A stretch of 64,000 nucleotides of DNA. It comes from an uncultured Chloroflexia bacterium (GTDB lineage Bacteria > Chloroflexota > Limnocylindria > Limnocylindrales > CSP1-4). Below, piece after piece: positions 1 to 48,712 of the stretch (positions are counted from its first letter, which is position 1; each line of letters opens with the position of its first letter). Location of the stretch: contig CAWEOO010000006.1 of the NCBI GenBank assembly GCA_963810725.1, positions 481 through 64,480 on the forward strand, written 5' to 3'. The notes beneath the pieces were generated by a model that worked only from the letters and a program-made list of their open reading frames with translations, was not told the DNA's origin and made no database searches. Made by a program: the position numbers and the translations under genes.

Positions 1-624
1 TCGACCGAAGACCACCTTGGTGCCGTCCGGGGAGAACGATGGGCTCATCCTCAGGTTCCGGGCTCGACGTGACGCGTGTGGCGCCCGTGCCGTCCGCCCG
101 CATCACGTAGACGTCTCCGTCCCGGACGAAGCGATCGATCCGCCGTCGGGCGACCAGGATGGATACATGTCCGTGCCGGGGTCGGTCGTCAGGCGGATCA
201 CTCCCGTCCCGTCTCCGTCGGCAAGGTAGATATCCCAGTTGCCGTCGACCGAGGCGTGATAGGCGACTTGGCCGGTCGCCGTCGCCGCGTCCGGATCTGC
301 GGAGGCTCCGCCTGGGCGACGGGGAAGGTCGACGGTGGCCAGCGGTGACGGTGCCGTCGACGCCGGTGGGCCTCCCACCCCCGGCGATCGATCGAGCAGG
401 CCGCCGCCGACCATGGCAAGAGCCACGACCACGACCGCCGCCGTGGTGAGTAGCGCGATGTTTCGCGTCATCGAGAAGATCCTCCACTCGAGAGGCGACC
501 CACGACGACGGATCCGACGCGTCTGCTCGAAGGTGTCCTCGAGCAGTCGATCGGGTGCCTGCGGTGGCGCGTCCGAGACGAGCCACGCCGTGATCCGGTC
601 TTCGGGAGTCGCGTTCGTATTCAT
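1..624 (-). pseudogene. Anti-sigma-like membrane protein with C-terminal PD40/TolB-type beta-propeller repeats. The 3' end runs off the window and there are frame breaks near ~150 and ~45.
   Basis: ORF 103-624 starts in an ATGA overlap with the stop of the upstream ECF sigma gene. It has one TM helix (IALLTTAAVVVVALAMVGG). 'DGNWDIYLADGDG' and 'PSWSPDG' are followed, in shifted frames, by 'DGDVYVMRADGTG' and 'PSFSPDGTKVVFGR'. Confidence 0.7.
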
Positions 625-1175
625 GCAGTCCGTCCATCGGTGACGGCAACGGTCGATCGAGCGTCCGCCTCGAGCGCGGCGCGCAGGATCCCCGTCGCGT
701 AATAGACCCGGGACTTCGCTGTTCCTTCCGGGATGCCGACAAGCTCGGCGATCTCATGGAAGGGGAGCCCCAGGTAGTAGTGGAGGACCACGACGACCCG
801 ATGCTCCGGCTTCAGTCGACGGAAGCCGCGCTCGAGCTGTTCGCGGTCGGCAAGGGTGGAACTGCCGTCGGCCTCAGCCGGTTCGGCATGGACAACGCGA
901 ATGTGGGCCTCGAACCGCCGCCGATGGCGTCGCTCGTCGGCGCATGCGTTGACGAGCAGGCGATGCAGCCACGCATCGAAGCGGTCCGGATCCCGGATCT
1001 TGTGCAGGTTTCGCCACGCGTCGATCAGGGCCGACTGGACAGCGTCCTCGGCGTCGTGGGTGTCGCGCAGGATGAGCCGAGCGATGGCGTAGAGCCGATC
1101 GACGGCGGCCGCGGCCAGGACCTCGAATGCCTCGTGGTCCCCGTCCCGTGCCGCCTCGACGAGCTCTCGCTGCAC
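621..1175 (-). CDS. ECF-type RNA polymerase sigma-70 family factor
   Basis: 184 aa with a GTG start. Region 2 matches 'DAEDAVQSALIDAWRNLHKIRDPDRFDAWLHRLLVNA' and region 4 HTH matches 'LPFHEIAELVGIPEGTAKSRVYYA'. Confidence 0.9.
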   Translation of the reverse strand: MQRELVEAARDGDHEAFEVLAAAAVDRLYAIARLILRDTHDAEDAVQSALIDAWRNLHKIRDPDRFDAWLHRLLVNACADERRHRRRFEAHIRVVHAEPAEADGSSTLADREQLERGFRRLKPEHRVVVVLHYYLGLPFHEIAELVGIPEGTAKSRVYYATGILRAALEADARSTVAVTDGRTA

Positions 1176-2163: not shown

Positions 2164-2743
2164 GTGGAGGGACGTCGCCGGCGTCCGGCCGCAGCCGCCG
2201 GCCGCGGTTCGTTGCAGCGGCGGCGTTCGTCGTCGCGAGCATGCTCGCCGGGTGCACTCCCGGCGGTGGCCCGACCCTCGCCACGTTCCCGGCCGGCACG
2301 CTCGGGCCGGCGAGGACGGTCGGGCCGAGCGTCGCCCAGACGCGCATCGAGCTCGTCCGCGTCCTTGGGGAGCGCAATCTCGTGCTCCGCGACACGGAGA
2401 CTCCATTCCGCCCGCCGGAGGACGTGACGTTCACGACGACGCCGCGAGCCGTCTACCAGGTCGTCCTGCCGAATGCCCCCACCGAAGGCTTCATCGTCGT
2501 CTACGAGTTCCCCGATGCGACCGCGGCAGCCGAGGCCGCCGCGGACCAGGCGGCGTACCTCGCAAGCGGCCCCGCGCGCGTCCAGGTGCCGTTCGGCGCG
2601 CGGCACATCATGCGGCTCGTCGGATCGACGGTCGTCCTCTACTCGTGGGTGCCCGAGGGCGTCGCTGACGAGCGACAGCCGCGACATCCAGCCGGCGCTC
2701 GAGACGCTCGGTACCGGGGTGCCGGCCCGTCAAGCGGCACTGA
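2148..2743 (+). CDS. Putative lipoprotein; 3' end uncertain
   Basis: Signal plus lipobox 'AAAFVVASMLAGCTPGG'. The ORF as drawn runs on to 3104, antisense to the acyl-CoA ligase, which looks like a GC artefact. A plausible alternative C-terminus ('DIQPALETLGTGVPA') sits in another frame. Confidence 0.45.
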
Positions 2744-4416
2744 GTGGCGCGTCGGCCGCAGGCTGGTGCCCCGCGCCGGTCAGGCCGCCAGTCCGCCGCG
2801 GGGCGCTCGCCGTCAGCGACGCCCAGCGGCGGACTCGGGATACGCGCTTGACCTTGAGCGTGTGCGTCCGGGGGAAGTCCTCGTCCGGCCACTGGCGCCA
2901 GCCCGCGATGCGCTGGTTCGGGCCCAGGCTGGCATTCGCGGCCTTGACCGCGGCGCCGACCCGTGTGCCCGTCGGCGTCCGCGCTCTCGCCGTCGAGGCC
3001 GAGCACGACCGCCTCGATCCGACCGGGCTCGGTCTCGAGGACCACGGCGTCGCGGATGCCGGCGATCCGGAGCGCGTTCTCGATGTCCTCGGGATATACG
3101 TTGAACCCGTTGGGCAGCACGATCATGTCCTTGATCCGACCGCTGAGGATCAGCCGGCCGGCCGCATCGAAGTGGCCCAGATCGCCGGTCTGGTACCAGC
3201 CGTCGTCCGTGAAGGCCCCGGCCGTCAGCTCGGGCGCGTTCCAGTAGCCCTTGAAGATGGAGCGGCCCCGGAACTGGATCTCGCCGCCTTCGACGATCCG
3301 CATCTGGATCCCTTCGGGCGTCCGTCCCACCGTGCCCGGCCCATGGTCGTCGAGGGTCGTGCACGCCCCGGTCCCCGTCTCGGTGGTGCCGTAGCCCTGG
3401 AGGACGGTGACGCCGAGGTCCTCCCAGGACTGCTGCAGCGACGGCGGCAGGAACGCCCCCGATGACAGGAACAGACGGAAGTGCCCGCCGAGCTGCGCGT
3501 GGACGCTGCGGAACAGCAGGCGCCGGAGCACGAACGGCAAGCGTCGCGCGATGCCGCGCAGTCGATCGACCGTCGCGCGGCGGCCGCGCTTGTCGATCTC
3601 GCGCTCGATGGCGCTCCAGAACAGGTCCAGGATCTGCGGAACGACCACCATCGAGGTCACCCGGTGCTCGCGCAGCGCATCGAAGATGACCCGCGGGTTC
3701 CGGCTCCGGACATACAGGATGTCCGCCCCGACATCGAGCGCGTAGTACAGCCCGACCGCCTGCTCGAGCAGGTGCGACAGGGGCAGCAGCGAGACGAGCC
3801 GGTGCTCCATCGGCGGGACGATGTGGTGGAACGACTCGATCGACGCCGCCACGTTGTCGTGGGTGAGCATCACGCCCTTGGGCGTGCCGGTCGTGCCGCT
3901 CGTGAAGATGAGCTGGAATACCTCCTCGGGCTCGGGGCGCTTCCAGGCGGCCTGGCGCGCCTCCCAGTCGGGCGTGAAGAGCGGATCGTCCGGCCCGGGC
4001 TCGGCCGAGAGGGCCTCGACGGTCGTCGTCGGGAAGTCGGCCAGGCCCGCCGCGGCGGGGTCGGGGGCGTCGCGGCCCGTCCCCAGGATCAGGTGGCGCG
4101 CCCCGGACGCGCGGACGATGGTCGCGACGGCGTCCGCAGACATGCGCAGGTCGAGCGGCACGATCACGACCCGAGCGTGCATCGCCCCGAAGTAGGCGGC
4201 CGGCAGCTCCGGGCTCGATGGGCTCCACGTCAGGATCCGGTCGCCGGGCTCCAGGTCAAGAGCTCGCAGCCGCCACGCGGCGATCCTGGAGCGACGATCG
4301 AGGTCGCGGTACGACCAATGCGCCCCAGCGCCGTCCTCGAGCCGGATGCCGAGGGCGGGGCGGTCGCCGAAGCGGGTCACGGCGCGCTCGAGCAGGTCGA
4401 TCAGGGTCGCTGGCAC
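2730..4416 (-). pseudogene. Long-chain fatty-acid--CoA ligase (AMP-binding family) with a frame break near ~2965
   Basis: AMP-binding motif 'IFTSGTTGTPKGV' and 'GYGTTE'. The conserved C-terminus 'TRVGAAVKAANASLGPNQRIAGWRQWPDEDFPRTHTLKVKR' is only readable in a third frame that ends at 2730. Confidence 0.85.
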
Positions 4417-4556
4417 GGGTTGCGGTCCTCGGGCGGGTCATCGAATGCTACGACGACGCCGTCGGGCGCCATCGCGTGACAGCGCAGCACGGCAGCGGGC
4501 TACCATCCCCCCATCGCGCCCGGCGCTGACGTCGACTCGCGGAGGTTGGCTGGCGG

Positions 4557-5414
4557 ATGCACCCGGTCCTGGGGCAGGTGGGCCCCGTCACGATCCTGAC
4601 CCACGACGCGTTCACCGTCCTGGCCCTCATCGTGGGCCTGTCGATCTACTACCGCGAGCTGGCGCGGCGGGGTTGGCTCGACACGCGGATCGTGTGGATC
4701 TCGCTCACGGCGGTCGTCGCCGGGGCGATCGGCGCCCGGACGATCACGGCCTGGGAACACGTCGAGTACTACACGGCCCTCGAGGGCGTGCCGCTGAGCG
4801 TGGCGATCGAGAACAGCGGCAAGAGCCTGATCGGCGCGCTGGCCGGGGGCTATCTCGGGACGGTGCTGGCGAAGCGGGCCTTCGGGTACACGCGCTCGAC
4901 CGGTGACTGCTACGTCCTCGCGATCCCCGTCGCCGACGCCATCGGACGAGTCGGATGCTTCCTCTCGGAGCTGCCGCTCGGGACGCCCACGACGCTGCCG
5001 TGGGGCGTGTCCGTGTCGGCCGAGGCGGCGGCGGCATTCGCTCGCTGTCCCGGGTGCGAGCTGCCGATGCACCCCTCGATGCTGTACGAGATCGTCTTCA
5101 ACCTCGTGGCCGTTGCGCTGATCGTCCGTTACCGCGCTCGCGTCCCGATCGTCGGCGACACGCTGAAGCTGTACCTGCTGGCTGCCGGCATCTTCCGCTT
5201 CTTCGTCGAGTTCGTCCGGGGCAACGAGCCACAGGCCCTGGGCCTCACCGGTCCGCAGTGGGTGCTGATCCCGCTGGTCGGGCTGCTCGTCGCCCACTTC
5301 GCCCGCCAGTGGTCGCGGGATACGTGGCGGGTCCCGGTCCCGCCGGGCGGCGAGGACCTCGTGGCGAGCACCGTTCGAGTCGATGGCCGAGCAGCAGGGA
5401 GGACCGCACCATGA
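4557..5414 (+). CDS. lgt: Prolipoprotein diacylglyceryl transferase family protein (divergent motif)
   Basis: 285 aa multi-TM protein. 'GRVGCFLSELPLG' aligns to E. coli 'GRLGNFINGELWG', 'HPSMLYE' to 'HPSQLYE', and 'FFVEFVRGNE' to 'IIVEFFRQPD'. Confidence 0.75.
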   Translation: MHPVLGQVGPVTILTHDAFTVLALIVGLSIYYRELARRGWLDTRIVWISLTAVVAGAIGARTITAWEHVEYYTALEGVPLSVAIENSGKSLIGALAGGYLGTVLAKRAFGYTRSTGDCYVLAIPVADAIGRVGCFLSELPLGTPTTLPWGVSVSAEAAAAFARCPGCELPMHPSMLYEIVFNLVAVALIVRYRARVPIVGDTLKLYLLAAGIFRFFVEFVRGNEPQALGLTGPQWVLIPLVGLLVAHFARQWSRDTWRVPVPPGGEDLVASTVRVDGRAAGRTAP

Positions 5415-5935
5415 CGGAACCGCCGGAGGAACGGAAGCCCAAGGATCCCTCGACCTGGATCGGAGAGACGAGCGATCGCGTCGCGTCGCTGAGCGAGTAT
5501 TTCCTGGCGGGCGCCGAGCGTTACTCGCCCGAGGCCCTGCGCCAGGCGGCAAGCGATTCCGGCTACACCCCAGAGGAGGTTGACGAGGCCTACCGTCGCG
5601 CGGCCAAGCGCCAGCGGGACGAGGAGCTGGCACGTCCGGTCCGCAGAGGTGCGCTCTGGATCGTCCTTGCGGTCTACGTGCTCGTGTACGCAGTGCTTGG
5701 CTGGGCACTACTAAGTGGATTGGAGAACCGGTACGGGACGGCAACCATCTCGCTGGGCGTGCTGACCTTCGTGCTCCTCCTTGCGCTTCTGATCTCGGTC
5801 AATTGGGTACGAGGCCGGCATCCATCGGCCGAGCAACTGCAGGGCGCGATGCTGACGATGCTGTCCGTGCCGCTCGTCCTTCTCGGATCCGTGGCCGGCC
5901 TGTGCATCGCCACGACACGACCATTTGGCCAGTGA
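5411..5935 (+). CDS. Membrane protein of unknown function, paralogue A (soluble N-terminal helical motif plus 4 TM)
   Basis: Its ATG sits in an ATGA overlap with the lgt stop. N-terminal 'RVASLSEYFLAGAERYSPEALRQAASDSGYTPEEVDEAY' is followed by hydrophobic helices. Confidence 0.65.
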   Translation: MTEPPEERKPKDPSTWIGETSDRVASLSEYFLAGAERYSPEALRQAASDSGYTPEEVDEAYRRAAKRQRDEELARPVRRGALWIVLAVYVLVYAVLGWALLSGLENRYGTATISLGVLTFVLLLALLISVNWVRGRHPSAEQLQGAMLTMLSVPLVLLGSVAGLCIATTRPFGQ

Positions 5936-6473
5936 CGACTTGAACGACGACAGCGGCTCGCCCGACCCGAGGACTCCGGCGCCGTCCCCGACGCCGGATC
6001 CAACCGCGGGCACCGGGGGCCAGCCGGACCGAGATGCTCGCGTCATCGCGCTCGCCGAGTACGTGCGGGCCAACCGCGACGCCTTCACCGAGGACGCGCT
6101 CCGCCGAGCGGCTGCCGATGCCGGATACGACGAGCGCGAGATCGCGGCCGCCTGGGCGGTATCCGCCGAGCCGGTCCGCGGACGCCGGTCGAACGCGAGG
6201 GCAGTCTTCATCGTCATCGGCTACTTCGTCGGCGTGTTCGTGGTGGCAACCGTTCTCTCGGCCATTCCCGAGACGAGCATCATGGGGCTGCCGGCGATTG
6301 GGATCGGGCTCCTGGGTGCGATCTTCGCCTGGCTCACGCTCCGGGATTCGAACCCGGCCTTGGCCGAGGCATTCCGGATCGCGGTGATCATCATCGTCGT
6401 GCTACCAGCCGTCCTGGCGCTCGTGGCGTTGGGCGTTTGCGTCGTGTTGATCGCGGGGTTCCGCGTCGCGTGA
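5925..6473 (+). CDS. Membrane protein of unknown function, paralogue B
   Basis: 'RVIALAEYVRANRDAFTEDALRRAAADAGYDEREIAAAW' aligns to paralogue A, and 4 TM helices follow. The start (TTG 5925 or TTG 5940) is uncertain. It overlaps the end of paralogue A. Confidence 0.6.
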   Translation: MASDDLNDDSGSPDPRTPAPSPTPDPTAGTGGQPDRDARVIALAEYVRANRDAFTEDALRRAAADAGYDEREIAAAWAVSAEPVRGRRSNARAVFIVIGYFVGVFVVATVLSAIPETSIMGLPAIGIGLLGAIFAWLTLRDSNPALAEAFRIAVIIIVVLPAVLALVALGVCVVLIAGFRVA

Positions 6474-6494
6474 CCCGCAGGAGGAGAGGCTGAC

Positions 6495-8060
6495 ATGCTC
6501 GCACTGCGCCCGTACATGCCGCTGCGGATGGTCCTGACCGTCTGTGGCCACTGCTTCAGCGACGACCCGGACCGCGAGATCGACTACGAGACCGACATCC
6601 TCCAGGGCAACCTCGTCGCCATGGATGGGGCGGTCTACCTGCGCCGGATCTGCCGACGCGGGCACGGCGAGGTCGTGAGCCTGTACGAAGAGGACCACGG
6701 CCGCTGGGAGTACCTCCAGCAATGGCGCACGCCGACCCGCCAGATCATCCCCGACACGCCCGGCAACGCGGCGCCCATCCCGATGGCGTACGCCGACGGC
6801 CTGGGCGACCTGCAGACCCAGCACTCGTGCGTCCTGCTGCTCGATATCACCGAGAACTGCAACCTCGAATGCCCGACCTGCTTCGCGGCCGCCGCTCCGG
6901 GGATCGGGCGGTTCGCGCGGCTGCCGCACCTCCTGCGTTCGCTCGACACGGCGATCGAGCGCGAGGGTGGCCGGGTCGACGTCCTGATGCTGTCGGGCGG
7001 CGAGCCGACGGTCCACCCAGAGGTCCTCGAGATCATCGAGGCGGCCACGGAGCGCAACGTGACCCGGGTCATCCTCAATACGAACGGGGTACGGATCGCG
7101 AAGGACGACCGGTTCGTGTCTGCCCTGGGCCGGCTGCGTGGCCGCGTGGAGGTCTACCTCCAGTTCGACGGGTTCGAGCTGGACTCGCACCTGTTCCACC
7201 GGGGCGAGGACCTGCGCGGCGTCAAAGCCGATGCCCTCCGGAGGCTCGCCGCGGAGCGCGTGTTCACGACGCTGGCCGTCGCCGTGGCCGACGGCGTCAA
7301 CGACCACGAGGTCGGCGCGATCGCCGACTTCGCCCTCGACACCGACTACATCGCGGGCGTCGCGTTCCAGCCGGTCTTCGGATCCGGCCGGGCCAATCCC
7401 ATCGATCCGATGCGACGCGTGACGACGACCGGCACACTCAATCGACTCGGCGAGCAGACCGCGGACCGGGTCGGGCCGGACGACTTCATCGCGCTGCCCT
7501 GCTCGCATCCCGATTGCTCCTCGATCACGTACTTCGTGCGCGGCGACAGCGGGGAGTGGCGGTCCGTGCCGAAGATGCTCGGGACCGACCGGCTCAAGGA
7601 GTACCTGGGCCTCGTCTCGAACCGCATCGCCCCCGACGATGCGATGTGGACGGCCCTCGTCGGGATGATGTCCGAGACGACGCTCGTGTCACGTCCCGAG
7701 CTCGTCGATCACCTGCTCCGGGTCTGCGATGCCTGCGACCTGGGGGTGAGCGGCTTCCTCAAGAGCCTGGGCCGTTGGATGTTCGATCGGGAGGCGGCCG
7801 TGGAGGAGATCGCCCTCCGGGTCAAGCGCTTCTCCGTCAAGTCGTTCATGGACGCGTGGACCCTGAATGTTGAGCGGCTCCAGCAGTGCTGCGTGCACGT
7901 CGGCTCGATCGACGGTGAGGCCAACCCGGTGCGGGTCCCGTTCTGCGCCCGGCAGCTGTTCGGTGGCCTCCGGCGCACTACGTCGGCCGGCATGGTCCCG
8001 GCGCGCGAGCTCGTCCTCCTCGACGACGTGCGCGGCCGGCGCGCGGCGGCCCCCTCGTGA
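6495..8060 (+). CDS. Radical SAM enzyme with MJ0619/Tes (GDGT-MAS)-like architecture; function unknown
   Basis: 521 aa with a strong RBS AGGAGGAG at 6479-6486. It has the 'ITENCNLECPTCFA' CxxxCxxC cluster, 'LSGGEPTV', an N-terminal Cys/His knuckle 'CGHC...CRRGHG', and C-terminal 'CSHPDC', 'CDAC' and 'FMDAWTLNVERLQQCCVHV...FCARQ'. Confidence 0.85.
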   Translation: MLALRPYMPLRMVLTVCGHCFSDDPDREIDYETDILQGNLVAMDGAVYLRRICRRGHGEVVSLYEEDHGRWEYLQQWRTPTRQIIPDTPGNAAPIPMAYADGLGDLQTQHSCVLLLDITENCNLECPTCFAAAAPGIGRFARLPHLLRSLDTAIEREGGRVDVLMLSGGEPTVHPEVLEIIEAATERNVTRVILNTNGVRIAKDDRFVSALGRLRGRVEVYLQFDGFELDSHLFHRGEDLRGVKADALRRLAAERVFTTLAVAVADGVNDHEVGAIADFALDTDYIAGVAFQPVFGSGRANPIDPMRRVTTTGTLNRLGEQTADRVGPDDFIALPCSHPDCSSITYFVRGDSGEWRSVPKMLGTDRLKEYLGLVSNRIAPDDAMWTALVGMMSETTLVSRPELVDHLLRVCDACDLGVSGFLKSLGRWMFDREAAVEEIALRVKRFSVKSFMDAWTLNVERLQQCCVHVGSIDGEANPVRVPFCARQLFGGLRRTTSAGMVPARELVLLDDVRGRRAAAPS

Positions 8061-8377
8061 GCGCCGTCAGCCCGGTCGGCCCCGGGACCTACGTCCGCCC
8101 GCCGCTGACGCGGCCGGAGAAGTACGAGCGGTTGGCGTTCACGTTCTGCCGCATGGGGACGGTGGGCCTGATCGCCTGGCTCGTCGGGCCGGCCATCTTC
8201 GTGCTCGCCGTCGCGATCGTGGCGATCGTGCTGTACGGCCGGGCCATGAGCCTCGGGGTCGGCTGGTCGAAGTGCTTCCTGCGCCGTCCCACGCTGATCA
8301 TCGGGTTCTGGGCGGTCGTGGCCGTCGTCGACGCGTACTGGATCTTGGCGCTCGGCCAGCGGCTGCCGACCGCGTAG
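8057..8377 (+). CDS. Small 3-TM membrane protein, translationally coupled to the radical SAM gene
   Basis: GTGA start/stop overlap at 8057-8060. 106 aa with helices 'VGLIAWLVGPAIFVLAVAIVAIVLY' and 'LIIGFWAVVAVVDAYWILAL'. Confidence 0.6.
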   Translation: MSAVSPVGPGTYVRPPLTRPEKYERLAFTFCRMGTVGLIAWLVGPAIFVLAVAIVAIVLYGRAMSLGVGWSKCFLRRPTLIIGFWAVVAVVDAYWILALGQRLPTA

Positions 8378-8421
8378 CCGGCCCGACGAGCGACCGTGGA
8401 GCCCGTGCCGACCCACCGATC

Positions 8422-8458
8422 GTCCGCCAAATGCCCCTGCTGGGAGCATTAGGCGGAC
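8422..8458 (+). terminator. Strong hairpin downstream of the lgt-to-8377 operon (no clear U-tract)
   Basis: GTCCGCCAAATGC (8422-8434) pairs with GCATTAGGCGGAC (8446-8458) at 12 of 13 positions, and CCC/GGG pairs inside the loop. It lies 45 nt after the stop at 8377. Confidence 0.45.
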
Positions 8459-8665
8459 TCTCGTGCCGTGACCGCCTCTCTTGCCCTCGATCCACGCCCG
8501 GCGGGCTGCTCCTTGAGCGTGACGCGCGACCCAACGGTTCGGATCGAGGGAGGCCGCGGTCGGATACACCGCCGTACGCTCCCCCGGCGAGCATTTGGCG
8601 CAGATACGGCGGCAATTTGGCCGAAACGTGGCGGCAACCTGCGCGCGCGAGGCTCGCCCGAACGT

Positions 8666-8695
8666 TTGACCCAGCCTGAGACCCTCGGGTAGACT
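8666..8695 (+). promoter_or_regulatory. Sigma-70-like promoter for rpsU (TTGACC-18 nt-TAGACT)
   Basis: TTGACC at 8666-8671 and TAGACT at 8690-8695, about 100 nt upstream of the rpsU start. Confidence 0.45.
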
Positions 8696-8797
8696 CCGGC
8701 GGCTCTGCGGCCCCCCCGTCGAGCACACGTCCAGCCGGCCGGCCGCGCGCCGGACGTGAATGAGACCGAGACCCTGGTCGTAGGAGGTGAACACCGA

Positions 8798-8983
8798 TTG
8801 GCTGAAGTCCGAGTGGGAGAGAACGAGACGTTCGAAAGCGCCCTGCGCCGCTTCAACAAGAAGATCCAGCAGAGCGGCATCCTCGCCGAGGCTCGCCGCC
8901 GCGAGCACTACGAGAAGCCTTCCGTGAAGCGGAAGCGCAAGGAAGCCAAGCGCAAGAAGAACGCCCGAACGCAGGCCGGCTGA
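8798..8983 (+). CDS. rpsU: 30S ribosomal protein S21
   Basis: '[47 protein letters not shown]'. TTG start at 8798 is preceded by AGGAGG at 8782-8787. The tracked ORF 8756 start is probably too far upstream. Confidence 0.9.
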
Positions 8984-9061
8984 GCGGGGTCACCCGCATC
9001 GACCGGAACCACTGCGGCCCCACGGGCGTTGCTGAACGACCGCCCGAGGTAGCCATCAACG

Positions 9062-9541
9062 GTGTCCCTTCGTGATCGAGTCCAGACTGATATCACCGCT
9101 GCAATGCGCAGCGGTGAGGCGCTGCGCCGCGACGTCCTGCGCATGGCGGCCAATGCCGCCTACAACGTCGAGAAGCGCAATCAGCAGCCGCTGACCGATG
9201 ACGAGTTCCTGGCCGTCCTGACCCGCGAGGTCAAGACGCGCCGTGAATCGGTCGATGCATACACCAAGGCCGGACGGGACGATCTCGCCGCCAAGGAGCA
9301 GGCGGAGATCACGATCCTCGAGGAGTACCTGCCGGCCGCGCTGAGCGAGGAGGAGGTCGGGGCGCTCGTCGAGCAAGCCGTGGCCGAGACCGGCGCCACG
9401 AGCCCGCGCGACATGGGCAAGGTCATGGGCTGGCTCTCCCCGCGCATCCGCGGCCGCGCCGACGGCAAGATCGTGAGCGGTCTCGTCGCCAGCCGCCTGG
9501 CCCAGGCGGACCTCGCCGCACACGATCGGAGTCCGCACTGA
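9062..9541 (+). CDS. yqeY: GatB/YqeY domain-containing protein
   Basis: 159 aa: 'LRDRVQTDITAAMRSGEALRRDVLRM...LTREVKTRRESVDAY...GKVMGWL'. It holds the typical position after rpsU. Confidence 0.85.
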   Translation: MSLRDRVQTDITAAMRSGEALRRDVLRMAANAAYNVEKRNQQPLTDDEFLAVLTREVKTRRESVDAYTKAGRDDLAAKEQAEITILEEYLPAALSEEEVGALVEQAVAETGATSPRDMGKVMGWLSPRIRGRADGKIVSGLVASRLAQADLAAHDRSPH

Positions 9542-27994: not shown

Positions 27995-29704
27995 GTGCCC
28001 CTCGCCGTGACCGATCCGGCGCTGACCCATGACCTGGGCCCCATCCAGCTCGTCTTCGTCACGCTCGTCGCCGCGATCGGGCTGACCTACCTCGCCCGGC
28101 GCCTGCGCATCGCCGACCCGATCCTGCTCCTGCTCGGCGGCATCGTCCTGGGCCAGCTGCCGGATCTCCCCGACATCGTGCTCGCGCCGGACATCGTGTT
28201 CCTGCTGTTCCTGCCGCCGATCCTGTTCGGAGCCGCCTACTTCACGCCGATCCGCGACTTCCGGGCGAACCTGCGCCCGATCCTGTTGCTGGCCATCGGC
28301 CTGGTGCTGTTCACGACGGTCGTGGTGGCCTTCGTCGCCGCGGCAGCCTCACGGGCATGCCGGTCGCTGCGGCGCTCGCACTCGGGGCCATCGTCGCGCC
28401 ACCGGACGCCGTCGCCGCCACGGCGATCTTCCGGCGCCTTGGGGTCCCGCGCCGGATCGTGACGATCCTCGAAGGGGAGAGCCTGCTCAACGACGCCTCG
28501 GCACTGATCGCCTATCGGGCCGCGGTGGCCGCGTGCCGCGGTCTCGGGAACCGCCGCCTTCTCGATCGGCAACGCGGCCGGCGACTTCGGCAGCGCTGTT
28601 GTGACTTCGTCGTCGTCGCGGCCGGCGGCTTGGCCATCGGGGCGATCGTCGGCGCGATCATCACGCGGACCCTGCACCGGACCGCGGATCCGGTCATGGA
28701 GATCATCGTCTCGTTGCTGGCACCGGCGAGTGCCTATCTCGCGGCGGAGCAGGTCGGCATGTCCGGCGTCCTGGCCACGGTCGTGGCGGGACTCATCACC
28801 GGCCAGCGCGCCGCGCGGGTCCTCTCACCGGACGCGCGACTCATGGGCGCCGGCGTGTGGCAGACCCTCATCTGGCTCATCAACGCCTTCGTGTTCATGC
28901 TCATCGGGTTGCAACTGCCGGCGATCCTCCGGGCGGTCCTCGTGGACCACCCCCCCGAGGAGTTGCTCGCGCTGGGCGTGGCCGTGAGCGCCACGGCCAT
29001 CGTGGCGCGCATCGTGTGGGTCTACCCGGCGACCTACCTGCCGCGCATGCTGAGCGCCAAGCTCCGAGCCCGCGACCCGTCCCCGCCGGCCCGCGCCGTG
29101 TTCATCCTCTCGTGGGCCGGGATGCGCGGCGTCGTGTCGCTGGCCGCCGCGTTCGCCCTGCCGCCCGACTTCCCGAGGCGCGACCTCATCCTGTTCCTCA
29201 CCTTCTGCGTGATCCTGGCCACGCTGATCGGCCAGGGCCTGACGTTGCCGTGGCTCATCCGCGCACCTCGGCGTCCTCGCGCCGCCAGGTGCGAATGGCG
29301 AGGAGGTCCACGCCCGGCTGGCCGCCGTCGAAGCCGCGCTTCAGCGTCTCGAGGAGCTGAAGAACGACTACCCCGACCACCTGCCGCTCATCGAACAGCT
29401 GCGCGAGGAGTACGAGCACGAGGCGGGCCACGTGATGCCGAGCCGGGGCGCCGGACCCGACGAAGCGGAGCAGGAACTGCTCGACCATCGGGCGATCCGA
29501 AACGCCGTCCTCGTCGCCGAGCGAGAGGCAGTGATCGCGTTGCGCGACGCCCGGGTCATCAACGACGAGACGCTTCGCGCGATCGAGCGCGACCTGGACC
29601 TCGAGGCGCTGCGGGTCGGGGCCACCGACCCGGCCGAGGCTCGGGTGCCGGCGCCTGACCCACCCCGGACGAACGTCCCGCGTCGGTTTCCACGCCTCGG
29701 GTGA
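27995..29704 (+). pseudogene. Na+/H+ antiporter (CPA1/NhaP type) with at least 4 frame breaks (~28350, ~28533, ~28597, ~29265)
   Basis: 'ILFGAAYFTPIRDF', 'ILEGESLLNDASALIAY' and 'SWAGMRGVVSLAAA'. The C-terminal regulatory tail 'EQELLDHRAIRNAVLVAEREAVIALRD' is in the frame of ORF 29432. Confidence 0.8.
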
Positions 29705-29745
29705 TACCCTCCGGGCAACCCTTAAAGACGGAGAGAGACCCCCAA

Positions 29746-30966
29746 GTGAGCATCGTCGACGCCGCGCAGTACCTGTTCACGTCCGAGTCGGTGACCGAGG
29801 GGCACCCGGACAAGATGTGCGACCAGATCTCCGACGCGATCCTGGATCAGATCCTGCGCGACGATCCGGACGCCCGGGTCGCCTGCGAGACCGCGACCAC
29901 GACGGGGCTCGTGCTCGTGCTCGGCGAGATCACGACCCACACCTACCAGGATTTCCAGGCCATCGTCCGCGACACGGTCCGCGACATCGGCTACACCCGC
30001 GCCGACTACGGGTTCGACTACCAGACCTGCGGGACGCTGGTGTCCGTCAAGGGCCAGTCGCCGGACATCGCCCAGGGCGTCGATGCGGCGCTCGAGGTCC
30101 GCGACGACGCGGCCTCCGCCTTCGAGCTGGGCGCCGGCGACCAGGGGATGATGTTCGGGTTCGCCTGCCGCGAGACCCCGGAGCTCATGCCCCTGCCGAT
30201 CGCGCTGGCCCACCGCATGGCCCGTCGCCTCGCCGAGGTCCGCAAGTCCGGCCAGCTGCCGTACCTGCGGCCCGACGGCAAGACCCAGGTGACGGTCGAG
30301 TACGAGCACGGCGTGCCCAAGCGGGTCCGCACCGTGGTCGTGTCGGCCCAGCACGATCCGGATGTCCGCCCGGAGCGGCTTCGCTCGGACATCGTGGAGT
30401 CGGTGATCCTGCCGACGATCCAGCGCGAGCTGCGCGACACGGATCCGGTCATGCACGTGAACCCGACGGGACGGTTCGTCACCGGCGGCCCGATGGGCGA
30501 TGCCGGCCTGACCGGGCGCAAGATCATCGTCGACACGTACGGCGGGATGGCACGCCATGGCGGCGGCGCCTTCTCGGGCAAGGACCCGACGAAGGTCGAC
30601 CGCTCCGCCGCGTATGCCGCCCGCTGGGTCGCCAAGAACGTGGTCGCGGCGGGTCTCGCCGATCGCTTCGAGATCGAGGTCGCCTACGGGATCGGCATCG
30701 CCCGGCCGATCAGCTTCACGGTCGATTCGTTCGGGACGGGCAAGATCGACGACGCGGACATCCAGGCGCTGATCGAGCGCCATTTCGACATGCGTCCGGC
30801 GTCGATCATCGCGGCGCTCGACCTGCGCCGGCCGATCTACCGCCAGACGGCCGCGTACGGCCATTTCGGACGGCCGGACCTCGACCTGCCGTGGGAGCGG
30901 ACCGACAAGGCCGCCCTCCTGGCTGCGGACGCGGGCCTGCCGGAGCCGGCGGCCGTCAGCGCCTGA
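29746..30966 (+). CDS. metK: S-adenosylmethionine synthetase
   Basis: '[24 protein letters not shown]', '[12 protein letters not shown]' and '[19 protein letters not shown]'. GTG start at 29746. Confidence 0.95.
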
Positions 30967-44991: not shown

Positions 44992-46065
44992 GTGTCGCAG
45001 GCCCCTCCGGCTCCCAACCCCGCTCCCGGAGGAACTCCCGCCGTGTCTCCACGCTCCCGACGCCGCGGCGTCGCATTGTCCCTGGCGTTGTCCGTCCTGC
45101 TGGCGGCCTGCTCCGCGCCCGGGGCTGATCCGTCGTCGGCACCAGCCGTCACCCCGGTCATCACCCCAGCACCCCCGCCCAGCACCGAACCCAGCCCTTC
45201 GCCGGCTGCCGCGTTCCCCGTCACCCTCATCGATGACGAAGGCACCACCCTCGAGATCGCCGCGGAGCCGCAGGTCATCGTGTCGCTGACCCCGGCCGCC
45301 ACGGAAACGCTGTTCGAGCTCGGGGCCGGCGACCGAGTCGTCGCGACCGACGACGGCAGCGACTACCCGGAGGCCGCCGCGGCGCTCCCGGATGTCGCGT
45401 CGTTCTCTAGCGTCGATGTCGAGCAGGTCGTGAAGCTCGAACCCGACCTCGTCGTCGCCGGCGGTCTGGGCTTCACCCCCGCCGACGCCATCACCCAACT
45501 CCGCGGGCTCGATATCCCCGTGCTGGTCGTCTACGCGCCCTCGGTCGAGGGTGTGTACAAGGACATCGAGCTCATCGGCACGGCCACCGGGACGAGCGAC
45601 GCCGCCAGGGCCGTGACGGCCGCGATGGCCGCCGAGATCGACGCGATCAGCGATGCCGTCGCCGCGAGCGGGACGGCGCCGCGCGTCTTCTACGAGATCG
45701 GCTACGACGCGACGACCGGGGCGATCTTCGCCCCCGCCGACGACTCGTTCGTCGCCGAGATGGTGACGCTCGCCGGCGGCGACACGATCACGACCGGGGA
45801 CCCGAACACGTACGAGATCGCGCTCGAGAAGCTCATCGAGCAGGACCCGGAGGTCATCGTCCTCGGCGTGAACCCGTTCTACATGCCGACGCCCGAGGAG
45901 GTGGCGGCGCGTCCGGGCTGGAACGTCATGACGGCCGTCAAGAACGACGACGTCCGCACGGTCCGCGACACCGAGATCACCCGGCCGGGGCCGCAGCTGC
46001 CGCTGGGGTTGCGCAACCTGGCCTCGGTGATCCGGCCGGACGTCACCCTCCCGGCCGCACCGTAA
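44992..46065 (+). CDS. btuF: ABC transporter substrate-binding lipoprotein (BtuF/FhuD class, cobalamin-type)
   Basis: Lipobox 'LSVLLAACSAPG' and a PT linker. 'IVSLTPAATETLFELGAGDRVVA' and 'EPDLVVA' are typical of periplasmic binding protein class 8. Confidence 0.8.
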   Translation: MSQAPPAPNPAPGGTPAVSPRSRRRGVALSLALSVLLAACSAPGADPSSAPAVTPVITPAPPPSTEPSPSPAAAFPVTLIDDEGTTLEIAAEPQVIVSLTPAATETLFELGAGDRVVATDDGSDYPEAAAALPDVASFSSVDVEQVVKLEPDLVVAGGLGFTPADAITQLRGLDIPVLVVYAPSVEGVYKDIELIGTATGTSDAARAVTAAMAAEIDAISDAVAASGTAPRVFYEIGYDATTGAIFAPADDSFVAEMVTLAGGDTITTGDPNTYEIALEKLIEQDPEVIVLGVNPFYMPTPEEVAARPGWNVMTAVKNDDVRTVRDTEITRPGPQLPLGLRNLASVIRPDVTLPAAP

Positions 46066-46070
46066 GGGCC

Positions 46071-47147
46071 ATGGCGGCCGGCGCGCTCGCACCCGACCTC
46101 GAATCCGGCGGCGTCGCCGCCTGGGTCCGGGGTCGGCCGGTCGTCGTCGGCGTGGTCGCCTCCGTGGTCCTCCTCGCCGCGGTCGTCCTGGGCGTCGGAC
46201 TCGGGTCCGTCCAGATCGGTCCCACTGAGACCATCGGGGTGATCCTGTGGCGGACCCTGGGCCTCCGGGTGGGTCTCGACTGGTCGCCCGCGAGCGAGGC
46301 GATCGTCTGGGACCTGCGGCTGCCGCGGGTCCTGACCGCGATGGCCATCGGGTCCGGGCTCGCCGTCGCCGGCGCCACCTTCCAGGGGCTGCTCCGCAAC
46401 CCGCTGGCGGACCCATACGTGCTGGGCACCGCGTCGGGGGCCGCGCTCGGGGCGGCAGTCGCGGTCCTGATCCCGATGCCGATCGTGGTCGTCGGCTTCG
46501 GGCTCCTGCATGGGTTCGCCTTCGCCGGGGCGCTGCTGTCGGCATATGTCGTCTTCCGGCTCGGTGGGTCCGGAGGCGCCGGCGGACTCACGCGCCTGCT
46601 GCTGACCGGCTACGCCGTGGGGTCCGTGCTCGCGGCACTCTTGACGATGGCGATGTACGTCTCGGGGGCCGACCTTCGCCAGATCTTCTCGTTCCTGCTC
46701 GGTGGTCTGGCGGGCGCGTCGTGGCTCCGTCTCGCGATCTCGGCCCCCCTGATCGTTGGCGCCTGCGTCCTCATGATGCTCCGTGCGCGCGCCCTTGACG
46801 GCCTGCTTCTGGGTGACGCGGCCGCCGGCCATCTCGGCATCGACGTCCGACGGGAACGGGGCATCCTGCTCGCCCTGGCCTCGCTGGCGACCGCGGCCGG
46901 GGTCGCGATCAGCGGGCTCATCGGCTTCGTCGGGCTGGTCGTGCCGCATCTCGTCCGGCTCGTCGTCGGCCCGGCGGCGCGCCGGGTGCTGCCGATCTCC
47001 GCGATCGTGGGTGCCGCGCTGCTGTCCGCGGCCGACCTCGTCGCCCGTCTCGTGGGCGATGTCCCGGTGGGTGTCGTGATGGCCCTGCTCGGCGCCCCGT
47101 TCTTCCTCTTCCTCCTCCAGCGCACGCGCTCGAGCTACGAGCTGTGA
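46071..47147 (+). CDS. btuC: FecCD-family ABC permease
   Basis: 'LRLPRVLTAMAIGSGLAVAGATFQGLLRNPLADPYVLG' and 'GLIGFVGLVVPHLVRL'. Confidence 0.85.
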   Translation: MAAGALAPDLESGGVAAWVRGRPVVVGVVASVVLLAAVVLGVGLGSVQIGPTETIGVILWRTLGLRVGLDWSPASEAIVWDLRLPRVLTAMAIGSGLAVAGATFQGLLRNPLADPYVLGTASGAALGAAVAVLIPMPIVVVGFGLLHGFAFAGALLSAYVVFRLGGSGGAGGLTRLLLTGYAVGSVLAALLTMAMYVSGADLRQIFSFLLGGLAGASWLRLAISAPLIVGACVLMMLRARALDGLLLGDAAAGHLGIDVRRERGILLALASLATAAGVAISGLIGFVGLVVPHLVRLVVGPAARRVLPISAIVGAALLSAADLVARLVGDVPVGVVMALLGAPFFLFLLQRTRSSYEL

Positions 47148-47911
47148 CGGCGGTGGAGCCGATCCTCGCGGCGCAGGACGTCACGATCGCGTACGGCGAC
47201 CGCCGCGTCGTGACGTCCGCGACCCTGGAGGTCGCCGGCGGCGAGCGGGTGGCGCTGGTCGGGCCCAATGGCGCGGGCAAGTCGAGCCTGCTCCGGGCGA
47301 TGACTGGCGTGCTCCGTCCTAGCGCGGGGGTGGTCCGCCTGTGCGGCGACCCGATCGACCTAGTCCAGCGATCGGCCGTGGCCCGCACGATCGCCGTGGT
47401 CCCCGAGCTCATCCAGCTGCCATTCGAGATGCCCGTCCACGAGGTCGTGGCCCTGGGCCGGCTCCCCCACGAGCCGCCCTTCACCGGTCTACGCCCGGCC
47501 GACCGCCTGGCGGTGGCCGGCGCCATGGAACGCGTGGGCATCGTCCATCTCGGTCATCGGGACGTGCGCGAGCTGTCGATGGGCGAGCGCCAGCTCGTGT
47601 TCATCGCCGTGGCGGTCGCGCAGTCGGCGCAGATCCTGGTCCTCGACGAGCCCACTGCGCACCTCGACATCCGCCACCAGGTGGACGTGATGGAGCTGCT
47701 CGTGGACCTCAACCGGCGCGACGGGACGACCGTGGTCGCGGTCCTCCACGACCTTGCGCTGGCCGCCCATTTCTTCCCCCGCGTCGTGGTGATGAGCGAG
47801 GGCCGGATCGTGGCCGACGGCTCGCCGACCGCGACGCTGGGTCCGGATCGGATCCGGTCGGTGTTCGGCGTGGACCCAGCGCTCGTGCGCCTGCCGGTCG
47901 GGGCGAGCTGA
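47144..47911 (+). CDS. btuD: ABC transporter ATP-binding protein (BtuD/FecE type)
   Basis: GTGA overlap. 'GPNGAGKSSLL', 'LSMGERQLVFIAVAVAQ' and 'LVLDEPTAHLD'. Confidence 0.85.
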   Translation: MTAVEPILAAQDVTIAYGDRRVVTSATLEVAGGERVALVGPNGAGKSSLLRAMTGVLRPSAGVVRLCGDPIDLVQRSAVARTIAVVPELIQLPFEMPVHEVVALGRLPHEPPFTGLRPADRLAVAGAMERVGIVHLGHRDVRELSMGERQLVFIAVAVAQSAQILVLDEPTAHLDIRHQVDVMELLVDLNRRDGTTVVAVLHDLALAAHFFPRVVVMSEGRIVADGSPTATLGPDRIRSVFGVDPALVRLPVGAS

Positions 47912-47913
47912 GG

Positions 47914-48696
47914 ATGGAGCGCGTCGTGCCTCGTGCCGCGAGATCGGTCGGGGTCGTCGCCACCGTGCGGGCCGCCGTGGGGCTGCTGACCCGGCTGCGC
48001 GTCGGGAGCGTCGCCGACATCCCGGGGGCCGCGGCCTTCGCGCTCGTCGGGGCGGCGGTCGGAGGCCTCGCGGCGGTGGCGCTCGCGCTCCTGGTCCTGG
48101 CCGGCGAGCCCGTGCTCGGGGCGATCGCTGCGGTGGCGGTACTCGCCGCCGTGTCCGGTGGCCTGCACCTGGACGGCCTGGCGGATACCGCCGACGCCCT
48201 GGTCGCGCCCGACCTCTATGCGGCGGAACGCGCCCGGGAGGATCCGGCCGTCGGGCCGGGCGGAGCCGTCGCGCTCCTGCTCGTCCTGAGTGCCGAGGTC
48301 GCCGCCCTCGCCAGCGTGACGGCGTCGTGGGGTCCACTGGTGGCCGCCTCGGGCCTCGTCGTGGGCGGTGCGGTGTCGCGCTGGTTGCCCGTGCTCTCGG
48401 TCGTGGTCCTCCGGGAACGGGTCGGGCACGAAGGCCTGGGTGCCTGGTTCAGCGACGCCGTTTCAGGCCGCGACGCGATCGTCGGCGCCATGACGATCGT
48501 GCTCGTGGTTGGCGTCGGGACGGCCCTGGGTGGGTGGGCCGTGGGTCTCGGCGCGTTCGCCGGTGGCGCGCTCGGCCTTGCCGCGACTGCGCTCATCGCG
48601 GGGGCCCGAGGTCGGCTCGACGGAGACGGCCTGGGGGCGTCCGTCGAGGTCGCGCTCCTGGCCACCCTTACCAGCCTGGCCGTGATCGCGCCGTGA
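47914..48696 (+). CDS. cobS: Adenosylcobinamide-GDP ribazoletransferase (cobalamin synthase)
   Basis: The Met-initiated part of ORF 47341-48696. 'GGLHLDGLADTADAL' and multiple TM helices. Confidence 0.8.
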   Translation: MERVVPRAARSVGVVATVRAAVGLLTRLRVGSVADIPGAAAFALVGAAVGGLAAVALALLVLAGEPVLGAIAAVAVLAAVSGGLHLDGLADTADALVAPDLYAAERAREDPAVGPGGAVALLLVLSAEVAALASVTASWGPLVAASGLVVGGAVSRWLPVLSVVVLRERVGHEGLGAWFSDAVSGRDAIVGAMTIVLVVGVGTALGGWAVGLGAFAGGALGLAATALIAGARGRLDGDGLGASVEVALLATLTSLAVIAP

Positions 48697-48712
48697 CCGG
48701 CGCGCTGGGGGC

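Follow-up and report, generated by a model that had tools for sequence, protein, structure and literature searches.

The closest described relative of the radical SAM (rSAM) enzyme considered here is the archaeal Tes (GDGT-MAS, MJ0619; structures 7TOL and 7TOM), which joins lipid tails and in which a C-terminal auxiliary cluster captures the first lipid-tail radical. Metagenome studies routinely take counts of bacterial Tes homologues as a marker of brGDGT potential, and the soil and lake producers of the brGDGTs used as palaeoclimate proxies are poorly constrained. Limnocylindria and their relatives are abundant, largely uncultured Chloroflexota of soils and lakes. In the cited literature the support for bacterial Tes homologues as brGDGT markers is correlative only; acidobacterial homologues, for example, coincide with iso-diabolic tetraesters and brGDGTs (PMC13023045). 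The identity of MJ0619 with GDGT-MAS/Tes, on which the initial annotation of this DNA had relied, is confirmed in PMC9433317. That study also found that Tyr459 is invariant among about 1,000 archaeal Tes homologues, that an M439A variant retains activity and that GDGT-MAS, when isolated from E. coli, has bacterial phospholipids bound to it. An alternative identity for MJ0619, the pterin methylase HMPTM, was rejected, as MJ0619 is the same protein as GDGT-MAS and the methylase annotation was irreproducible (PMC9433317). A bacterial radical SAM enzyme that couples the fatty-acyl tails of ester phospholipids is described in Mss of Thermotoga and Thermoanaerobacter, which is only a remote relative of Tes, is confined so far to anaerobes and has no reported Lgt partner (PMC13159169).

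The second described system is Lgt, whose chemistry is the S-alkylation of a protein cysteine at an active site that is periplasmic and directed toward the outer leaflet (PMC4728403). In the E. coli enzyme the diacylglyceryl portion of phosphatidylglycerol (PG) is held by an essential network of Arg143, Arg239, Glu243 and Arg246, and Tyr26 touches the PG backbone, the Y26A, Y26F and Y26Q variants being inactive (PMC4728403). A literature search for a link between Lgt and Tes, or between Lgt and radical SAM enzymes, returned nothing relevant.

Layout and conservation of the cassette

A five-gene cassette occupies positions 4557-8377 of the + strand in a 64,000-nt stretch, referred to as the window, of the Limnocylindrales CSP1-4 contig CAWEOO010000006.1 (GCA_963810725.1). 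Its features are collected in Table 1.

Table 1. Features of the cassette and its downstream boundary (window coordinates)
Feature	Position	Strand	Basis
Lgt-family paralogue, 285 aa, altered active-site motif GRVGCFLSELPLG	4557..5414	+	Pfam PF01790, AF2 model
Membrane protein A, 174 aa; charged N-terminal domain of ~75 aa, then three hydrophobic segments	5411..5935	+	hydropathy
Membrane protein B, 182 aa, start uncertain, paralogue of A	5925..6473	+	29% identity to A
Shine-Dalgarno-like AGGAGGAG, ending 8 nt 5' of the rSAM start codon	6479..6486	+	sequence
GDGT-MAS/Tes-fold radical SAM (rSAM) enzyme, 521 aa	6495..8060	+	profiles, PDB 7TOL, Foldseek
Small membrane protein E, 106 aa, two invariant cysteines C31 and C73	8057..8377	+	conservation, GTGA overlap with rSAM
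GC-rich hairpin 3' of the last gene, possible operon end	8422..8458	+	MFE and centroid folds

The genes at 4557-8377 form one conserved, translationally coupled operon. The initial annotation had read five + strand genes as a single unit, and every coordinate and overlap that it gave was recovered on re-reading the sequence. The ATG of A at 5411 overlaps the TGA of the lgt-like gene at 5412-5414 (ATGA), A and B overlap by 11 nt (TTG 5925 against the A stop at 5935), 21 nt separate the B stop at 6473 from the rSAM start at 6495, and the GTG of E at 8057 overlaps the rSAM TGA at 8058-8060 (GTGA). The ribosome-binding site proposed for the 21-nt gap, AGGAGGAG, is likewise present. The start of B is uncertain since TTG 5925 lacks a clear ribosome-binding site and a second in-frame TTG occurs at 5940. 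Third-position GC in the five ORFs ranged from 0.77 to 0.99, whereas position 2 gave 0.46-0.53, a pattern expected of genuine genes at a genomic GC of 70%. The strong terminal hairpin that had been noted downstream does fold, but 'strong terminator' was an overstatement, as the hairpin has no U tract, a consensus terminator scan called none there and the z-score of the fold reaches only -1.94. A promoter-like site lies at 8666-8695, upstream of rpsU, and an Rfam search of 4000-9200 returned no riboswitch and no other RNA.

A relative of the rSAM enzyme occurs in at least 583 species-level genomes, the best 80 of the matches being mostly from Limnocylindria. Among related loci, 66 of 67 have the Lgt-like gene upstream of the rSAM gene and 77 of 78 have E downstream of it, the rSAM and E genes overlapping by 4 nt in 70/77; chance is excluded as the source of this arrangement. 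The cassette is thus a conserved, translationally coupled unit, and the survey of relatives found the homologues to be almost always linked to an Lgt-family gene. Linkage was retained in distant relatives at 47%, 45%, 37% and 37% identity, in one of which (L084) the gene order is rearranged, and the distant linked loci differ in their flanking genes. It was gone in one relative with a higher Tes-model score. Hundreds of Chloroflexota species from soil and freshwater keep the Lgt-like and rSAM genes together, along with E and one or two small membrane proteins. One further locus (L092, P0147), a fragmented region with a weak LGT match on the opposite strand, was left out of the evidence.

A diverged paralogue of Lgt

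The cassette 'lgt' is a paralogue that has diverged and whose signature motif is altered. The original call held for family and fold: Pfam PF01790 scored 110.7 bits against a gathering threshold (GA) of 24.9, E. coli Lgt (5AZB) was the sole Foldseek match of the AF2 model (TM 0.62), and the seven-TM fold and HPS-LYE motif are common to both proteins. It did not hold for an ordinary lgt, as TIGR00544 scored 57.9 bits, below its cut-off of 118.9, and all NCBIfam Lgt equivalogs failed. Cassette homologues elsewhere scored 85.9 (L084), 79.4 (L086) and 47.4 (L087) on the same model. A canonical Lgt above the cut-off (158.6) adjoins the cassette on the same contig in L040, the one case in which the two were seen together in a genome, and the canonical family is widespread in the lineage with its own conserved locus. 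A housekeeping role for the Lgt-like gene was therefore rejected on the canonical Lgt of L040, the separate widespread family and the scores that separate the two.

Much of the Lgt active site is retained. Equivalents of E. coli D129, R143, G154, R239, E243 and R246 are present, and R131, R214, E218 and R221, which correspond to Arg143, Arg239, Glu243 and Arg246, are invariant across the cassette and canonical Lgt proteins aligned. The Lgt signature GRLGNFINGELWG (G142-G154), in contrast, reads GRVGCFLSELPLG in the Lgt-like protein, with Asn146 replaced by cysteine. All six cassette proteins aligned, distant ones included, have this cysteine (Cys134) at the position of Asn146, and it is invariant in 28 close homologues. 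The position of Tyr26 is His16 (T-H-D), and none of the six cassette proteins conserves the tyrosine. Canonical Limnocylindria Lgt proteins keep HWYG, whereas the paralogue has lost its Tyr26 and gained STGD and CPGC motifs.

These substitutions bear on whether the gene might encode a second, otherwise ordinary Lgt of specialised substrate, as in those actinomycetes that carry two lgt genes, with an rSAM enzyme that merely tunes nearby membrane lipids and a pairing that reflects envelope co-regulation. The Lgt fold and most of the network residues are retained and lipobox proteins are present in the organism, all of which would suit such an enzyme. We nevertheless regard this as quite unlikely, because Asn146 is replaced in 6/6 cassette proteins and Tyr26 conserved in none, and because the linkage outlasts both gene reordering and divergence to 37% identity among other flanks, which exceeds usual co-regulation. 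We know of only one activity in the Lgt family so far, and a conserved paralogue with an active-site cysteine would be its first functional offshoot.

The radical SAM enzyme compared with Tes

The rSAM enzyme is a full-length relative of GDGT-MAS/Tes, which stands alone in the PDB in this respect. It matched 7TOL at E=3e-32 as a single sequence and at E=3.8e-56 as a profile, positions 36-490 of the profile aligning with residues 36-493 of the 7TOL chain. The AF2 model (pLDDT 73.8, pTM 0.83) matched the four-domain fold of 7TOL over its whole length in Foldseek (E=3e-27, TM 0.69/0.72, 538 columns), while the next-best structure reached a TM of 0.35. SPASM-type models gave weak matches only (E 1e-5 to 1e-9) within residues 106-304, and SkfB, SuiB and similar structures a TM of 0.35 or lower. 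The earlier view that the enzyme is not SPASM-, MoaA- or PqqE-like is borne out, since matches to those families cover only the core at about 106-304 and the enzyme has no C-terminal half of their type. The motifs quoted for it (CGHC, CRRGHG, CNLECPTC, YLQFDG, GVNDHEVG, FQPV, FMDAW, CCVHV and FCARQ) were all found.

It is not, though, a Tes orthologue. It scored 175.4 bits on the NCBIfam Tes model NF045702, below the cut-off of 450 and with a best stretch of residues 35-341 only, the [4Fe-4S]N site is absent, and both Tyr459 and Met439 are replaced. Of the assignment to an MJ0619/Tes-type enzyme, then, the full-length relationship stands and orthology does not. The top-scoring NCBIfam model was the radical SAM (seleno)protein TrsS (NF045646), a sister family within the same superfamily, which aligned along its full extent (residues 38-488 with 16-431 of the 441 model positions), but at 216.8 bits against the 490 required; TrsS is uncharacterised, so the match yields no functional lead. 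Profile searches thus gave no full-length match to a different characterised rSAM subfamily.

The two enzymes, at about 20% identity, have in common the fold, the CX3CX2C cluster, a rubredoxin-like site of three Cys and one His, and the FMDA(W/Y) and CC(V/I)H motifs. In the rSAM homologues the cluster cysteines C122/C126/C129 and the iron site C17/C20/C53/H57 are invariant, the spacing of the latter being CX3H and not CX2H. The [4Fe-4S]N site is missing, as the stretch from C53 to C112 has no further cysteine; the Tes ligands C73/C77/C80 and His of this site align with A, D, G and Q, in a region of pLDDT <50. The C-terminal cysteines are C336, C341, C411, C414, C465, C466 and C484, and cysteines of the rSAM enzyme align with Tes C338, C455/C456 and C470 of the [4Fe-4S]C domain. 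The labile Met439 of Tes is replaced by an invariant Lys449, Cys438 by Val and Tyr459 by Val469 (CCVHV against CCIHY), and C336/H338, C411/C414 and H110/C112 are additional residues invariant in the subfamily. It is also a bacterial enzyme whose gene shares a fixed operon with that of an Lgt paralogue, whereas Tes has no such operon. Given the low identity, the missing [4Fe-4S]N site and Tyr459 and the subfamily-specific Cys and His residues, its chemistry may differ from that of Tes.

Such divergence leaves room for a substrate that is a small molecule other than a lipid, for instance a cofactor or a precursor of the cell wall, with the adjacency to the Lgt-like gene unrelated to lipid tails. 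The enzyme is too far from Tes for its substrate to be called by sequence, and some homologues carry the database name 7,8-dihydro-6-hydroxymethylpterin dimethyltransferase (the old 'class D methylase / HMPTM' annotation, still in use at JGI). For MJ0619, though, that annotation was irreproducible and the structure speaks against it (PMC9433317), and all the conserved partner genes of the cassette encode membrane proteins. A small-molecule substrate is accordingly very unlikely.

Small membrane proteins and proposed chemistry

Proteins A and B had been described as membrane paralogues. Their paralogy stands (29% identity, E=2e-7), but most related loci (48/77 by a crude ORF filter) carry a single A/B-type gene, and the pair is a recent local duplication and not a fixed feature of the cassette. 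The description of E as a protein of three TM helices was not upheld, there being two hydrophobic stretches, at residues 33-59 (27 aa) and 79-100 (22 aa). E is a hairpin-type membrane protein, and its C31 and C73 are invariant in 81/81 sequences, including those of the distant L084 and L086 loci. The N-terminal tail and the loop are positively charged, so both cysteines are probably cytoplasmic. Pfam and NCBIfam searches with A, B, E and their counterparts gave nothing above threshold, except that the L084 counterpart has one borderline zinc-ribbon match at its N-terminus; those of L087 just missed the threshold.

The invariant cysteines of E raise the question of whether the cassette acts on protein. 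The Lgt paralogue would lipidate a dedicated protein, for instance E or a particular set of lipoproteins, and the rSAM enzyme would modify that protein or its thioether-linked diacylglyceryl anchor, for example by cross-linking or cyclising the two tails of the anchor. The conservation of these cysteines, the translational coupling of E to the rSAM gene, the S-alkylation of protein Cys by Lgt (PMC4728403) and the invariant Cys134 and CPGC pair of the paralogue are all consistent with this. The cysteines nevertheless stand outside a lipobox context and are probably cytoplasmic, whereas the Lgt site is periplasmic; E, as a membrane protein of high conservation, does not resemble a typical precursor peptide; and the rSAM enzyme resembles the lipid-binding Tes throughout and not the peptide-modifying SPASM maturases. 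A protein-directed cassette seems unlikely on balance.

The cassette points to undescribed membrane-lipid chemistry, and on homology and gene linkage the remodelling of lipids or lipoprotein anchors that had been suggested for it is plausible. Tentatively, as the likeliest of the readings, it may be a membrane-associated module of glycerolipid modification in which radical chemistry on lipid tails by the rSAM enzyme is coupled to diacylglyceryl transfer. E, perhaps with help from A/B, would dock the soluble rSAM enzyme on the cytoplasmic side of the membrane, and the enzyme would take a hydrogen from an unactivated acyl-chain carbon of a phosphatidylglycerol-type lipid. A new bond, most simply a tail-to-tail C-C link, would form via a cluster-sulfur intermediate by analogy with Tes. 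The Lgt paralogue would draw on the same lipid pool, either already modified or awaiting modification, and transfer the diacylglyceryl group to an acceptor other than ordinary lipobox proteins, with release of glycerol-1-phosphate. Radical SAM enzymes need the cytoplasm. With the Lgt site at the outer leaflet, the two steps would fall on opposite faces of the membrane and a flip or hand-over would be needed.

Mss is a functional precedent for this proposed chemistry, and the phospholipids bound to GDGT-MAS from E. coli and the coincidence of acidobacterial Tes homologues with iso-diabolic tetraesters and brGDGTs are further precedents. A more specific form of the glycerolipid reading, doubtful as it stands, is that Limnocylindria and their relatives employ the Tes-derived enzyme in making tail-coupled glycerolipids (macrocyclic or membrane-spanning, iso-diabolic-acid-like) whose units the Cys-active-site Lgt paralogue installs or transfers. 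If true, this would mean a new protein or lipid anchor, or an unrecognised bacterial source of brGDGT-type tetraester precursors. A large and coherent bacterial subfamily is in any case set apart by metal sites unlike those of Tes and by its lock to an Lgt paralogue, and for these reasons such matches should not be counted as Tes. The cassette is compact, at four to five genes, and directly expressible.

Ether-lipid or other lipid-tail genes were not found elsewhere in the 64-kb window, which weighs against the glycerolipid reading. In its favour, a fatty-acyl-CoA-ligase-type gene adjoins the cassette in both clades, and a DAGK_cat gene is present in the L084 locus.

Gene organisation of the cassette

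The initial annotation had placed five forward-strand genes in one operon, and the open reading frames were found at the positions claimed, with the codon-position GC typical of genuine genes (genome 70% GC). Inspection of the sequence bore out all of the junctions; the ATG of gene A overlaps the stop of the Lgt-like gene, the putative TTG start of gene B lies 11 nt within gene A, a 21-nt spacer containing AGGAGGAG precedes the ATG of the 521-aa radical SAM enzyme (rSAM) and the GTG of gene E overlaps the rSAM TGA. Genes A and B are indeed paralogues (29% identity, E=2e-7). The hairpin said to end the unit does form, but it is without a U tract and was uncalled by a terminator scan. No RNA was found by an Rfam search of the cassette region.

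No family model exists for the small membrane protein E, in which C31 and C73 are invariant in 81/81 sequences (the window protein and 80 homologues) and an AFxxC motif is conserved. Its N-tail and loop are both strongly basic and its first hydrophobic stretch (27 aa) has a conserved proline in the middle, which suggests a hairpin anchor with both cysteines predicted to face the cytoplasm.

Features of the window and of related loci (L numbers)
Feature	Sequence	Position	Strand	Remark
Lgt-like gene	window	4557-5414	+	cassette
Gene A	window	5411-5935	+	cassette
Gene B	window	5925-6473	+	cassette
AGGAGGAG	window	6479-6486		in spacer 5' of rSAM ATG; sequence inspection
rSAM gene	window	6495-8060	+	cassette
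Gene E	window	8057-8377	+	cassette
Hairpin	window	8422-8458
Promoter-like site	window	8666-8695		5' of rpsU
AMP-binding gene	window	2608-4416	-	divergent, upstream of cassette
metK	window	29701-30966
B12-type uptake set	window	44992-50394		adjoins CobT-like gene
Sigma-like ORF	window	621-1175	-	pair spans 103-1175
Lipobox proteins	window	2148, 12401, 44992	+
Lipobox proteins	window	41890, 34811	-
Canonical Lgt	L040	7272-8171	-
Canonical Lgt	L089	6001-6906
Canonical Lgt	L090	8001-8879
Canonical Lgt	L091	4044-4922
Tes-like gene	L088	1263-2669		low GC (36%)

Relationship of the radical SAM enzyme to Tes

In rSAM, Pfam detected nothing beyond the generic Radical_SAM domain and a weak match to the HMPTM zinc ribbon. 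The top NCBIfam model was TrsS, aligned end to end (216.8 bits, cut-off 490), followed by Tes, the archaeal tetraether synthase GDGT-MAS (175.4 bits, cut-off 450); matches to the remaining families were confined to the core at ~residues 106-304. GDGT-MAS (7TOL/7TOM) was also the only substantial PDB relative, with E=3e-32 for the single sequence and E=3.8e-56 for a 14-sequence profile, positions 36-490 of which matched chain residues 36-493. The AlphaFold2 model (pLDDT 73.8, pTM 0.83) gave a TM of 0.69/0.72 with 7TOL over 538 columns, against 0.35 for the runner-up structure. The equation of MJ0619 with GDGT-MAS in the initial annotation was correct, since mj0619, earlier annotated as the methylase HMPTM, encodes that enzyme (PMC9433317). 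The claim that rSAM is itself of Tes type stands as regards a fold relative over its full length, but not as regards the Tes cut-off, below which it falls.

Metal ligands were mapped from alignments of rSAM to GDGT-MAS (7TOL/7TOM), with Tes numbered after PMC9433317. The rubredoxin-like site of Tes is retained in rSAM (C17, C20, C53, H57), as is the radical SAM cluster (C122, C126, C129). The [4Fe-4S]N site (C73, C77, C80 and a His in Tes) is impossible in rSAM because C53 is followed by no further cysteine until C112; this stretch is of low confidence in the AlphaFold2 model. Tes C338, C455/C456 and C470 align with C341, C465/C466 and C484 of rSAM, whereas the labile Met439 is replaced by an invariant Lys449, Cys438 by Val and Tyr459, conserved across ~1,000 archaeal homologues (PMC9433317), by Val469. 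The invariance of C336/H338, C411/C414 and H110/C112 is restricted to the rSAM subfamily. It follows that rSAM lies within the Tes/TrsS superfamily and outside both named families.

The Lgt-like gene and canonical Lgt

The product of the cassette gene that had been called lgt does have the Lgt fold (Pfam, 110.7 bits), with E. coli Lgt (5AZB) the sole match to its structure model (TM 0.62), but it falls below the cut-off of every NCBIfam Lgt equivalog (TIGR00544, 57.9 vs 118.9). In an alignment with E. coli Lgt and a canonical Limnocylindria Lgt, it has equivalents of E. coli D129, R143, G154, R239, E243 and R246, but its signature motif is GRVGCFLSELPLG, Cys134 standing at the position of Asn146, and Tyr26 of the HWYG motif is replaced. 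Both changes occur in 6/6 aligned cassette-linked Lgt-like proteins, including distant ones whose rSAMs are 37-47% identical. In E. coli Lgt, the active site of which is at the periplasmic face, the tested Y26, R143, E151, Y235, R239, E243 and R246 variants were inactive, save for the partially active Y235T (PMC4728403).

A tblastn search with E. coli Lgt revealed a second, canonical Lgt, divergent from and adjoining the cassette in L040, which has HWYG and GRLGNFVNQELYG and passes TIGR00544 (158.6 bits). Its family has thousands of members, part of them labelled Candidatus Limnocylindria, and a conserved locus of its own with an MFS (LplT-like) transporter and a PlsC-type acyltransferase, divergent, upstream; only in L040 was it directly seen on one contig with the cassette. 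The altered motifs, the failed equivalogs and the separate canonical Lgt mark the cassette gene as a paralogue, and its reading as the housekeeping Lgt was rejected as very improbable.

A PALP enzyme lies downstream of canonical Lgt in this locus, which resembles the E. coli lysophospholipid-recycling genes linked to lipoprotein maturation. Several predicted window proteins begin with a signal peptide that closes with a classical lipobox (LAGC, LAAC, ITGC, IAAC), from which it follows that the organism produces ordinary lipoproteins and requires a functional Lgt. The Lgt-like protein also has an invariant C-P-G-C pair (C164, C167) in the region matching the Lgt periplasmic head domain. This pair is absent from the distant L084 and L087 proteins, which have a CC pair directly after the GRxGC motif.

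Conservation of the cassette and a model of its function

More than 3,500 rSAM homologues were found, the best (67-91% identical) from Chloroflexota/Limnocylindria MAGs. Scanning a single genome from each species gave no fewer than 583 matches; the best 80 were fetched and, together with three further loci, formed a set of 83. The linkage proposed in the initial annotation was upheld in these relatives: the Lgt-like gene was upstream of rSAM on the same strand in 66/67 loci with 2 kb or more of DNA on that side, E was present in 77/78 having downstream DNA, and a start codon in its frame overlapped the rSAM stop by 4 nt in 70/77. Outer neighbours depend on the clade (acyl-CoA ligase, rpsU and yqeY in one, different genes in the other), so that conservation of the cassette does not depend on wider synteny. 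The interval between the Lgt-like gene and rSAM varies and usually holds one gene, for a protein with TM segments and an N-terminal domain that is helical or of zinc-ribbon type; the A/B pair of the window is a local duplication.

Clustering at 50% defined a narrow subfamily, with one main cluster, representatives at 47% and 45% and then none above 37%. The order is rearranged to rSAM-LGT-111 aa-86 aa in P0123 (47%), and is methyltransferase-LGT-100 aa-rSAM-97 aa in P0126 (45%), LGT-158 aa-158 aa-rSAM in P0146 (37%) and LGT-100 aa-63 aa-rSAM in P0160 (37%). P0144, which at 36% is about as close to the query as the 37% outliers, scores higher than the query with the Tes model (361 bits) and has no Lgt at its locus, the neighbours being DsbD_TM and a methyltransferase. 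L088 carries a Tes-like gene with a higher Tes-model score, beside a DsbD-type protein and a CMAS/UbiE-type methyltransferase and without Lgt, and is a different bacterial setting for the superfamily.

The linkage of rSAM, the Lgt-like gene and small membrane proteins survives rearrangement and deep divergence; an alternative is that the Lgt-like protein is a specialised second Lgt and rSAM merely a co-regulated neighbour. Phosphatidylglycerol is the substrate of Lgt. Tes acts on archaetidylglycerol and bound bacterial phospholipids when produced in E. coli (PMC9433317), and by analogy we infer that rSAM and the Lgt-like protein share a glycerolipid substrate. The most economical model would be a two-step scheme, in which E would dock rSAM at the cytoplasmic membrane face, rSAM would carry out a radical modification of acyl tails, most simply C-C coupling, and the Lgt-like protein would then move the diacylglyceryl unit onto a non-canonical acceptor. 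In Acidobacteria, the presence of Tes homologues coincides with that of iso-diabolic tetraesters and brGDGTs (PMC13023045), and acyl-tail coupling in anaerobes is carried out by a different radical SAM enzyme, Mss (PMC13159169). A weak point of the two-step model is that the two active sites would lie on opposite membrane faces, and a protein-directed system, with E or lipoprotein anchors as the target, is an alternative. A further weak point is the loss from rSAM of Tes-specific residues, and its substrate may alternatively be non-lipid. Bacterial Tes homologues are already known and have been tallied in published surveys, where they are biochemically uncharacterised; a literature search found no report tying them to an Lgt-family gene.

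The AMP-binding gene, of long-chain fatty-acid-CoA-ligase type, is a recurrent lipid-activation neighbour of the cassette. In the second clade a related gene shares the strand of the cassette and is no more than a few kb away; it is upstream of the Lgt-like gene in L038, L049, L072 and L074, and in L001 it is downstream of the cassette and fused to an acyltransferase domain. A MAG labelled Rubrobacter sp. LC3_1 has two cassette copies on separate contigs (L060, L066; rSAM 72% and 71% identical to that of the window), and further carriers are labelled Verrucomicrobiia, Patescibacteria, Clostridia and Methylomirabilota; the non-Chloroflexota labels are probably binning or labelling errors.

No other lipid genes were found across the rest of the 64-kb window, the remaining genes being housekeeping (metK, ABC transporters, B12 uptake with cobT, tRNA synthetase genes and amino-acid biosynthesis). 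The B12-type set comprises a periplasmic binding protein, a FecCD permease and an ABC ATPase, adjoining a CobT-like phosphoribosyltransferase. Judged from the translations, one reverse-strand ORF resembles an ECF-type sigma factor; a candidate for its anti-sigma factor is the downstream ORF, which it overlaps by 4 nt and which has a single hydrophobic segment together with WD40-like repeats.
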